From: a virus | Taxonomy: Duplodnaviria > Heunggongvirae > Uroviricota > Caudoviricetes | Strand: one strand, 5' to 3' | DNA: 4,730 bases | Virus record (IMG/VR): IMGVR_UViG_2711768074_000004 | Shown: one piece after another, positions 2,080 through 4,730 of the stretch | How the letters are laid out: each line of letters opens with the position of its first letter | Position numbering within the stretch: the first letter of the stretch is position 1 | Translations under genes and position numbers: made by a program | The notes under the pieces: generated by a model | Seen by the model: only the letters and a program-made list of their open reading frames with translations | Databases searched by the model: none | Told to the model about the DNA's origin: nothing

Positions 2080-2732
2080 TGAGTAATAAATATTGCCAGG
2101 CGCTGGTGGAACTGCGGAACAAACCAGCCCATGAACTGAAGGAAGTGGGCGATCAGTGGCGCACGCCGGACAACATTTTCTGGGGAATTAACACCCTGTT
2201 TGGCCCGTTTGTTCTGGATCTGTTCACTGATGGTGATAACGCCAAATGTGCCGCTTATTACACTGCGGAAGACAACGCGCTGGCGCATGACTGGTCAGAA
2301 CGTCTTGCGGAGCTTAAAGGTGCTGCCTTTGGTAATCCCCCGTACAGCCGCGCCAGTCAGCATGAGGGGCAATACATCACCGGCATGCGTTACATCATGA
2401 AACATGCCAGTGCTATGCGTGATAAAGGCGGGCGCTATGTTTTCCTGATCAAAGCTGCCACCAGCGAAGTGTGGTGGCCGGAAGATGCAGACCATATTGC
2501 TTTTATTCGCGGGCGTATTGGTTTTGAACTGCCAGCCTGGTTTATCCCGAAGGACGAGAAGCAGGTGCCGACAGGCGCTTTCTTCGCTGGTGCTATTGCT
2601 GTTTTCGACAAGACCTGGAAGGGACCGGCAATCAGCTACATCGGGCGCGATGAACTTGAGGCATGTGGTGAGGCGTTTCTGGCGCAGGTTCGCCAGCAGG
2701 CAGAAAAACTTGTCAGGGAGATGGCGGCATGA
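2079..2732 (+). CDS. DNA N6-adenine methyltransferase, phage Dam family; orphan (no restriction endonuclease partner in the window)
   Basis: Translation MSNKYCQALVELRNKPAHELKEVGDQWRTPDNIFWGINTLFGPFVLDLFTDGDNAKCAAYYT...FGNPPYS carries the NPPY catalytic motif of amino-methyltransferases. ATG 2079 preceded by GGGG at 2071-2074; the ORF-track start at 2046 is an in-frame upstream extension lying inside the previous gene. Confidence 0.85.
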   Translation: MSNKYCQALVELRNKPAHELKEVGDQWRTPDNIFWGINTLFGPFVLDLFTDGDNAKCAAYYTAEDNALAHDWSERLAELKGAAFGNPPYSRASQHEGQYITGMRYIMKHASAMRDKGGRYVFLIKAATSEVWWPEDADHIAFIRGRIGFELPAWFIPKDEKQVPTGAFFAGAIAVFDKTWKGPAISYIGRDELEACGEAFLAQVRQQAEKLVREMAA

Positions 2733-3055
2733 CGACGTTAACTCAATGCCAGCAGCAGGTGCTGGATATGCTGATTTCTTACCAGCAAGAGCGTGGCTTT
2801 CCGCCAACCAATCAGGAGGTGGCAACCATGCTGGGATACCGTTCAGTGAATGCAGCGGTGGAGCATCTTCGCGCACTGGAGAAAAAAGGCGTCATCACGA
2901 TAAAGCGTGGCGTGGCCCGGGGGATCACGCTTCATACCGCAGTGAAGGACGACGACAGCGAAGCGGTCGGTATCATCCGCGCACTGCTTGCCGGTGAGGA
3001 GAGCGCCAGGTTGCGTGCAGCCCACTGGTTACATGAGAGGGGCCTGAAAGTATGA
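2729..3055 (+). CDS. LexA DNA-binding-domain family protein (winged HTH only, no S24 peptidase domain)
   Basis: LTQCQQQVLDMLISYQQERGFPPTNQEVATMLGYRSVNAAVEHLRALEKKGVITIKRGVARGITL aligns along its length with the E. coli LexA N-terminus ([65 protein letters not shown]). At 108 aa it has no room for the cleavage site or Ser/Lys dyad. ATG overlaps the methyltransferase stop (ATGA). Confidence 0.8.
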   Translation: MTTLTQCQQQVLDMLISYQQERGFPPTNQEVATMLGYRSVNAAVEHLRALEKKGVITIKRGVARGITLHTAVKDDDSEAVGIIRALLAGEESARLRAAHWLHERGLKV

Positions 3056-3460: not shown

Positions 3461-4270
3461 ATGAATAATCTGATGGTCATTGATGGTATTGAAGTTCGTC
3501 GTGATGCTTATGGGCGTTACAGCCTGAACGATCTGCATCGCGCAGCAGTAGCATCTGGTGCAAATGCCAGAACCAAGGAGCCAGGAAAGTTTCTTTCCAG
3601 CCAACAAACTGTTGAGCTTGTTCATGAATTGACCAACACCCAGAATTTGGGTGTTGACCCGGTGAGTGTGATTCATGGGGGAAATGAACGGGGAACGTAT
3701 GTCTGCAAGGAACTGGTGTATGCCTATGCAATGTGGATCAGCCCGTCATTCCATCTGAAGGTGATCCGTACTTTCGACATGGTAACCAGCGCACCGGAAA
3801 AATTATCCGGACAGGCTGCTGACAAGATGCAGGCTGGTGTGATTCTGCTGGACTTTATGCGCCGGGAATTAAACCTGTCTAACTCTTCAGTGCTTGGTGC
3901 CTGTCAGAAACTCCAGGAGGCTGTTGGCTTACCGAATCTGGCACCGCGCTATGCCATTGATGCTCCTGCTGACGCGCCTGATGGCTCAAGCCGCCCCACG
4001 CTGTCACTGAGTGCACTGCTGAAGCAGTATGGTATCCGCCTGACAGCTAATCAGGCATATCACCAGATGGCGAAGCTGGGGATCGTTGAACAACGTGAAC
4101 GATACAGCCGCACTGCGATTAACAACATCAAAAAATTCTGGTCGCTGACAGCGAAAGGCTGCATGTTCGGCAAGAACATCACCAGTCCCGCAAATCCGCG
4201 CGAGACGCAGCCGCATTTCTTCGAATCCCGGTTCCCTGAGCTGTTAAAGCTGCTCGATACCGTTCATTGA
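3461..4270 (+). CDS. KilA-N domain protein with KilAC/Ant-like C-terminal region (antirepressor-like)
   Basis: N-terminus MNNLMVIDGIEVRRDAYGRYSLNDLHRAA...GTYVCKELVYAYAMWISPSFHLKVIRTFD is KilA-N-like; C-terminal part (LSALLKQYGIRLTANQAYHQMAKLGIVEQRE...) resembles the KilAC/Ant C-terminal domain. ATG 3461 preceded by AAGAGGAG at 3445-3452; the ORF-track start at 3428 is an upstream in-frame extension overlapping rusA. Confidence 0.8.
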   Translation: MNNLMVIDGIEVRRDAYGRYSLNDLHRAAVASGANARTKEPGKFLSSQQTVELVHELTNTQNLGVDPVSVIHGGNERGTYVCKELVYAYAMWISPSFHLKVIRTFDMVTSAPEKLSGQAADKMQAGVILLDFMRRELNLSNSSVLGACQKLQEAVGLPNLAPRYAIDAPADAPDGSSRPTLSLSALLKQYGIRLTANQAYHQMAKLGIVEQRERYSRTAINNIKKFWSLTAKGCMFGKNITSPANPRETQPHFFESRFPELLKLLDTVH

Positions 4271-4271
4271 G

Positions 4272-4643
4272 GTGACCGTGAGAGCGCTACTGACCCCTGA
4301 AATTGCCCCGCGTATGGGGATCGTATTGTTCAGGCCAGGTTCAGAGCTGATGCCCCTGTTTATGCAGGGGCGTGTCCTGCTGGAGCCTGAGCCGGAACGT
4401 TATTCATCTTTCGCCAGTGGTGCCGTTCCGGCGGCATCACAACCGCTGGCGGATGATCCTGCCGTTCGGGCCGTGTTCCGCAATGAGGCAGTGATCCGTC
4501 GTGCTGGTGGCGTGGAATGTCTTGAAAGCTGGTTACTTCGTGAAAAAGGCTGCCAGTGGCCTCATTCCGACTGGCACAGCGAGAACATGACAACAATGCG
4601 ACACGCGCCGGGCGCAATCCGTCTGTGCTGGCACTGCGGGTAA
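4272..4643 (+). CDS. hypothetical nin-region protein, 3'-truncated by IS1 insertion; last residue and stop codon are supplied by the IS1 terminus
   Basis: ORF opens directly after the KilA-N gene stop (in-frame GTG 4272/4278 near GAGGTGA, or ATG 4314). It ends ...LCWHCG-TAA, where codon GGG 4638-4640 straddles the IS1 boundary and TAA 4641-4643 lies inside the IS1 inverted repeat. Family not recognised; a DUF968/YdfU-type protein is a possibility from genomic position only. Confidence 0.5.
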   Translation: MTVRALLTPEIAPRMGIVLFRPGSELMPLFMQGRVLLEPEPERYSSFASGAVPAASQPLADDPAVRAVFRNEAVIRRAGGVECLESWLLREKGCQWPHSDWHSENMTTMRHAPGAIRLCWHCG

Positions 4644-4730
4644 TGACTCCAACTTATTGATAGTGTTTTATGTTCAGATAATGCCCGATGACTTTGTCAT
4701 GCAGCTCCACCGATTTTGAGAACGACAGCG
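4639..4730 (-). mobile_element. IS1 insertion sequence, partial (92 bp in window), reverse orientation; the IRR end abuts the phage DNA
   Basis: 4639-4730 GGTAATGACTCCAACTTATTGATAGTGTTTTATGTTCAGATAATGCCCGATGACTTTGTCATGCAGCTCCACCGATTTTGAGAACGACAGCG matches the reverse complement of the right end of IS1 as I recall it, including the ~23-bp terminal inverted repeat at 4639-4661. Confidence 0.9.
4654..4730 (-). CDS. insB: IS1 transposase InsB, C-terminal fragment (partial; continues beyond the window)
   Basis: Minus-strand translation of 4730..4654 gives ...LSFSKSVELHDKVIGHYLNIKHYQ-stop, the InsB C-terminus. Confidence 0.75.
   Translation of the reverse strand, partial: LSFSKSVELHDKVIGHYLNIKHYQ

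Follow-up and report, generated by a model that had tools for sequence, protein, structure and literature searches.

The stretch of DNA analysed here (the window, 4,730 bp) makes up the whole of contig CYGG01000153.1 in a draft assembly of E. coli (GCA_001284325.1), and the same contig and its 121-aa protein are on record from two samples. It is a prophage early-right segment bracketed by the ends of two different insertion sequences. Its left end, positions 1 to 108-112, is the terminus of an ISCro1-like element of the IS66 family; tnpA begins at 55 on the minus strand, and the AAAA run at 109-112 leaves the exact border of the element ambiguous. The element interrupts a regulatory gene of the Rha family at about codon 174 of 321. 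At its right end the window runs 92 bp into IS1. Both ends are accounted for by the inability of short-read assemblers to resolve multicopy IS elements. The features of the right-hand part are:

3461 to 4270, plus strand: KilA-N domain gene (PF04383, E = 2.6e-22)
4272 to 4643, plus strand: mechanically called ORF, with an alternative GTG start, a chimeric GGG codon at 4638-4640 and an IS1-derived TAA at 4641-4643
4278 to 4638, plus strand: 5' fragment of a DUF968 / His-Me-finger gene (codons 1-120 and the first base of codon 121)
4630 to 4638: GGCACTGCG, the predicted 9-bp IS1 target, deduced from the usual 9-bp duplication
4639 to 4730, minus strand: terminal 92 bp of IS1 (IS1A type), the insB-3'-proximal inverted-repeat end, with the window end inside the element

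The interruption of a phage gene by IS1 at 4638/4639 is confirmed. Megablast of positions 4100-4730 against complete E. coli genomes matched the KilA-N and DUF968 genes in 2,262 genomes, and the matches always covered 4100-4638 only. At the base level the alignment breaks at 4638/4639, intact copies reading CTGGCACTGCG and then ATAACCAGC, versus CTGGCACTGCG and then GGTAATGAC in the window (...CACTGCG followed by ATAAC... versus ...CACTGCG followed by GGTAATG...). The cut falls after the first base of codon 121 and turns GAT (Asp) into G-GG (Gly), the ORF ending ...TGC TGG CAC TGC GGG TAA. An earlier note on this DNA had placed the border of IS1 exactly there and had described the final glycine codon as partly, and the stop codon as wholly, IS1 sequence; the ORF and the alignment bear this out, the codon consisting of one phage G and of GG from IS1. 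The same note held that the native protein must have continued, as it does in the intact homologue WP_001300046.1 of E. coli 219, a protein of 329 residues to which the fragment is identical over 120 of 120 amino acids. Concerning the 123-aa product counted from 4272, the ORF exists, but the true start is probably the GTG at 4278, which gives 121 aa: it is preceded by a GAGG at a distance of 5 nt, both PGAP and the gene caller of the collection begin there, and a Klebsiella phage homologue has an ATG at the same position. The truncated product has been deposited as CTZ98521.1, a 'putative prophage protein'. The remaining 121-aa fragment has lost a D-N-x-x-R motif and the whole C-terminal DUF968/HNH domain, and the gene is therefore inactivated.

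Positions 4639-4730 were identical over 92 of 92 bases to IS1A/IS1B copies of complete E. coli genomes (E = 6e-40). Such identical copies were present in 4,951 of the 5,426 genomes, and the same search with the terminal 92 bp gave a median of 10 IS1 matches per E. coli genome. In comparison with a complete reference copy of 768 bp (E. coli SK1144, locus L004, 1001-1768), position 4639 corresponds to base 1 of the terminal inverted repeat GGTAATGACTCCAACTTATTGAT and 4639-4661 is the right-end inverted repeat (about 23 bp); the ends of this reference copy pair as inverted repeats, which in IS1 start with GGTAATGACTCCAACTTATTGAT and GGTGATGCTGCCAACTTACTGAT. On the minus strand, 4728-4654 encodes the InsB C-terminus LSFSKSVELHDKVIGHYLNIKHYQ and its stop codon. 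These last 24 residues are identical to those of the annotated IS1A transposase and, together with the stop, represent all that the window, ending at 4730, holds of insA and insB. The transposase is read on the minus strand, toward the phage gene, and the visible IS1 end is the insB-proximal one.

Domain assignments were obtained from the intact protein, in which DUF968 (PF06147) covers residues 160-326 (E = 6.5e-81, 270.9 bits) and HNHc_6 (PF16784) residues 251-308, both entirely downstream of the cut. An HNH-type motif, PCACCG...DPHH...LCRKHHDELH, is found at residues about 250-310 of the intact protein and is absent from the window. The 121/123-aa window product matched no Pfam family, PF06147 at its gathering score included. 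The fragment did match phrog_96, 'HNH endonuclease', at profile positions 1-121 of 334 (E = 2.6e-56), and the entries retrieved in a homologue search with the 121-aa product were all short or partial, none exceeding 211 aa. The window ORF, which stops ahead of the domain, is a pseudogene fragment of a DUF968 member gene, orthologous to the N-terminus of the members and devoid of the functional domain. Within the His-Me-finger superfamily, DUF968 has been assigned to group 7 together with DUF1364 (YbcO, PDB 3G27) and YdfU, and RusA, Q and antirepressor genes have been described as typical neighbours of DUF968 genes (PMC5714182). The motif criterion for group 7 is a beta-beta-alpha-metal fold with CxxC ... 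HH ... C..HH. This neighbourhood agrees with the present context, with RusA in the window and Q in its relatives. Functional phages carry the complete gene: of the 186 phage records matched by tblastn, 173 were covered over 80% or more of the intact length of 329 residues. They include mEp460, 2H10, Stx2-converting phages, mEp390 and, with 25-26% identity, P1 (PdcB).

The part of the gene left in the window ends within a conserved N-terminal block, C-Q-x-x-[HD]...T-x-x-R-H...L-C-W-x-[CH]-D-N-x-x-R, which was recognised in the window (4551-4638, residues 92-120) and in the homologues. Residues C92, Q93, C117, W118, D121, N122 and R125 are invariant in nine full-length homologues, in an alignment spanning down to 25% identity (P1 PdcB), and position 120 is either Cys or His. 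It had been proposed that the terminal CWHC might be the start of a Cys/His metal-binding motif. The alignment places it otherwise, in the middle of the block, with Cys/His residues before it and the invariant D, N and R directly after the cut, so that IS1 parts CWHC from D-N-x-x-R; the Cys/His domain recognised as HNH-type lies apart from it, toward the C-terminus. All homologues that reach the site continue ...LCWHCDN(Q/L)LR..., with invariant D and N, and none of them ends at LCWHCG, so that the comparison with homologues called for in the earlier note upholds the truncation. No Pfam family matched the N-terminal block, and Pfam and PDB sequence searches with residues 62-190 returned only the edge of DUF968 and one chance match. 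Alignment of the block with the C-terminal HNH region by hhalign gave a probability of 0.4%, and an AlphaFold2 model of the N-terminal 163 aa, built from a 12-sequence alignment, was unreliable (pLDDT 43.8). The block may be a candidate second metal-binding or His-Me-like module, for which hhalign and AlphaFold2 brought no support.

The KilA-N gene belongs to the same operon, its stop codon lying 7 nt ahead of the DUF968 start, and the order KilA-N then DUF968 is also that of E. coli 219 and phage 2H10. Several other features of the segment deserve mention. The replication-initiator-like gene at 770-1588 (HTH_36/DnaD_N) encodes 272 aa, versus 330 aa for its counterpart in the otherwise near-identical prophage of E. 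coli 219 (locus L001, 1497-2489), a difference that reflects the exchange of a mosaic module in the early-right operon. At 1585-2079 lies a gene for a transcriptional activator of the PerC family (yfdN-like; PF06069, E = 7.8e-9); in pathogenic E. coli, PerC homologues of prophages are known to affect the expression of virulence genes. The gene at 2729-3055, located between those for the Dam methylase and RusA, encodes a 108-aa protein whose sole domain is the LexA DNA-binding one (PF01726, residues 1-65); it lacks an S24 peptidase domain and could be a non-cleavable LexA-like regulator. Five gene overlaps of 4 bases (ATGA/GTGA) were observed, at 549-552, 770-773, 1585-1588, 2729-2732 and 3052-3055. 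They suggest translational coupling along a single early-right transcript, which fits a Q gene in need of read-through from upstream.

The gene that follows DUF968 was examined in nine related phage and prophage loci:

E. coli 219: Q of PF06530, 18 bp past the DUF968 stop
Phage 2H10: Q of PF03589, 14 bp past the DUF968 stop
mEp390: 'Late gene regulator Q', overlapping the DUF968 stop
YeP2: Q of PF03589, 77 bp past the DUF968 stop
vB_EcoS-640R1: rusA, then Q
Kp4876-4: DUF1133/PF06530 protein directly after the DUF968 homologue
PSTCR8lys: DUF1133/PF06530 protein directly after the DUF968 homologue
Vibrio phage Strym: hypothetical protein of 91 aa with no Pfam match
P1 (pdcB): lpa, late promoter activator, 89 bp past the stop

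A Q-family antiterminator was thus found downstream of DUF968, directly or after rusA, in seven of the nine loci, and P1 has Lpa. The earlier statements that the cut gene is the last of the nin-like region and that Q is typically the next gene in lambdoid phages agree with this order. A Q gene beyond IS1 at the window locus would be expected by analogy with these relatives, for which the arrangement is well supported. Counted differently, the DUF968 gene lies upstream of a late-gene activator in eight of nine relatives (loci L001, 5179-6557; L003, 4001-5756; L007-L013), and these activators come from unrelated families, namely PF06530 Q, PF03589 Q, DUF1133/PF06530 and, in P1, Lpa.

Taken as a whole, these data are best explained by transposition of IS1 into codon 121 of a 329-codon DUF968/HNH-like gene, the gene that closes the early-right ('nin'-like) operon in a lambdoid prophage of the e14/mEp460 type, an explanation to which we give a probability of about 0.9. 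The exact DUF968-IS1 junction was absent from the 5,426 complete E. coli genomes, and also from GTDB representative genomes, JGI metagenomes and IMG/VR. Since it was absent from all these collections, the insertion looks private to one lineage and is presumably recent. A complete IS1 measures about 768 bp and usually duplicates 9 bp of its target (8-10 bp). In the case of a simple insertion, GGCACTGCG would be repeated at the far IS1 end, followed by the remainder of the DUF968 gene and then by Q. The IS1 left end would be next to GGCACTGCGATAACCAGCTGCG, and the far side would read from the IS1 left end through GGCACTGCG and ATAACCAGCTGCG into Q. The G+C richness of the predicted target counts against a simple insertion, as IS1 is usually said to prefer A+T-rich regions.

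The junction might instead be the endpoint of an IS1-mediated adjacent deletion, of an inversion or of IS1-IS1 recombination, and the part of the DUF968 gene beyond the cut (its 3' two thirds) would then be lost or located elsewhere in the genome, together with Q and perhaps the late genes. Substrates for such events are ample in E. coli, given the median IS1 number reported above, the visible locus stops at 4730, within IS1, and the window is bracketed by an IS66-family end (1-108/112) and an IS1 end (4639-4730), as in an IS-rich decaying prophage. However, the bracketing is uninformative, for short-read contigs end in ISs with or without rearrangement. Moreover, C-terminal fragment proteins beginning at the first ATG past the cut do exist in public assemblies. 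When the predicted C-terminal fragment ORFs were compared with recorded proteins by exact sequence match, four of the seven were on record, and the 195-aa form (MATDNC...) was located on a 34.8-kb NCBI/ENA contig. Insertions of this type would be expected to leave such proteins on their other side. We consider a rearrangement unlikely, while granting it some weight.

Two other origins of the junction can be put much lower. In an assembly artefact, the 92 bp of IS1 would owe their place to a graph error or a chimeric read, and the genome itself would have an intact gene. In favour of this reading, the IS1 part is short and lies at a contig end, where misjoins are commonest. Nevertheless, the join coincides with the very first base of the inverted repeat, for which a random chimera has a chance of about 1/768, the same contig and protein were recorded from two samples, and a contig that reaches about one k-mer length into a repeat is the normal sign of a true repeat boundary. 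An artefact is thus highly improbable. The possibility of a naturally short version of the gene, with the 121/123-aa ORF ending by chance where IS1 begins, drew on phrog_11007, whose 134 positions cover the N-terminal part only, and on the many short 'partial' N-terminal fragments on record. These short entries are contig-end partials or frameshifted copies, however. With homologues running on past the site, a stop codon that is IS1 sequence and D121, N122 and R125 invariant down to 25% identity, this candidate was refuted and its probability is practically nil.

As regards expression, translation adds the single chimeric glycine codon and stops at the TAA in the IS1 inverted repeat; under the insertion reading, an untranslated stretch of about 760 nt, antisense to insAB, follows in the RNA. 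According to the classical literature, untranslated RNA of this sort is what Rho-dependent polarity of IS1 insertions requires, whichever their orientation. Because ribosomes halt at the IS1 border ahead of this untranslated stretch, Rho-dependent polarity on Q is plausible, and late-gene activation would be weakened accordingly. A scan for consensus terminators in IS1 in its present orientation detected a single weak terminator-like site. N-type antitermination of lambda has classically been reported to suppress IS polarity, and transcription modified in this way could pass through IS1; IS1 ends can also create outward hybrid promoters. The earlier note went further in expecting a cryptic prophage. 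Such an outcome is conceivable as an extrapolation from the polarity described above, and the viability of phage P1, which carries an IS1 of its own, counts against a strong claim of crypticity. Of the two P1 genes, lpa is essential, but pdcB, the distant homologue, is not (PMC10695390). It is therefore probably not the missing DUF968 protein that would cripple the phage, and any defect would come from polarity on Q. An alternative view of the consequences would be domestication instead of mere decay, with Q uncoupled from early-right transcription, the prophage thereby locked in its host, and the conserved 120-residue N-terminal module, which ends just past its Cys/His cluster, kept as a stand-alone functional protein. 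The existence of a separate PHROG for N-terminal-only ORFs (phrog_11007) fits a stand-alone module, but we regard this scenario as very doubtful.

The insertion is an ordinary, strain-specific disruption of a prophage gene by IS1, and IS1, DUF968, Q and this kind of event are all well known already. Its importance outside annotation is small. CTZ98521.1 should be read as an IS1-truncated DUF968/HNH-like pseudogene, and the prophage segment as an IS-ridden one, in which rha contains an IS66-family element and the DUF968 gene contains IS1. Should polarity on Q prove true, the locus would provide a further example of IS elements immobilising prophages. Of mild interest are the linkage between DUF968 and late-gene activators, which is kept across non-homologous regulators, and the conservation of the N-terminal block down to 25% identity.

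Among known members of DUF968/group 7, namely YdfU of Qin, WP_001300046.1, gp45 of SfV, gp47 of 2H10 ('HNH endonuclease') and PdcB of P1, the closest comparison is with WP_001300046.1, which shares residues 1-120 at 100% identity and the gene order RusA, KilA-N, DUF968, with Q next in E. coli 219. In contrast to the intact DUF968 proteins, the window copy is without the domain at residues 160-326 and the C-terminal HNH-type motif. The classical polar IS1 insertions of E. coli have the same terminal 92 bp, comprising the inverted repeat and the insB 3' end, and in classical insertional inactivation by IS1 the gene is likewise cut at the precise end of the element and receives its stop codon from it. 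The present case differs in that one element end is visible and in that its site was absent from every collection searched. The cryptic lambdoid prophages of E. coli K-12, DLP12, Rac and Qin, are IS-disrupted as well. Whereas the prophage of the window is known from 4.5 kb only, it resembles them in presenting a lambdoid early-right region that carries ISs, here an IS66-family element and IS1.
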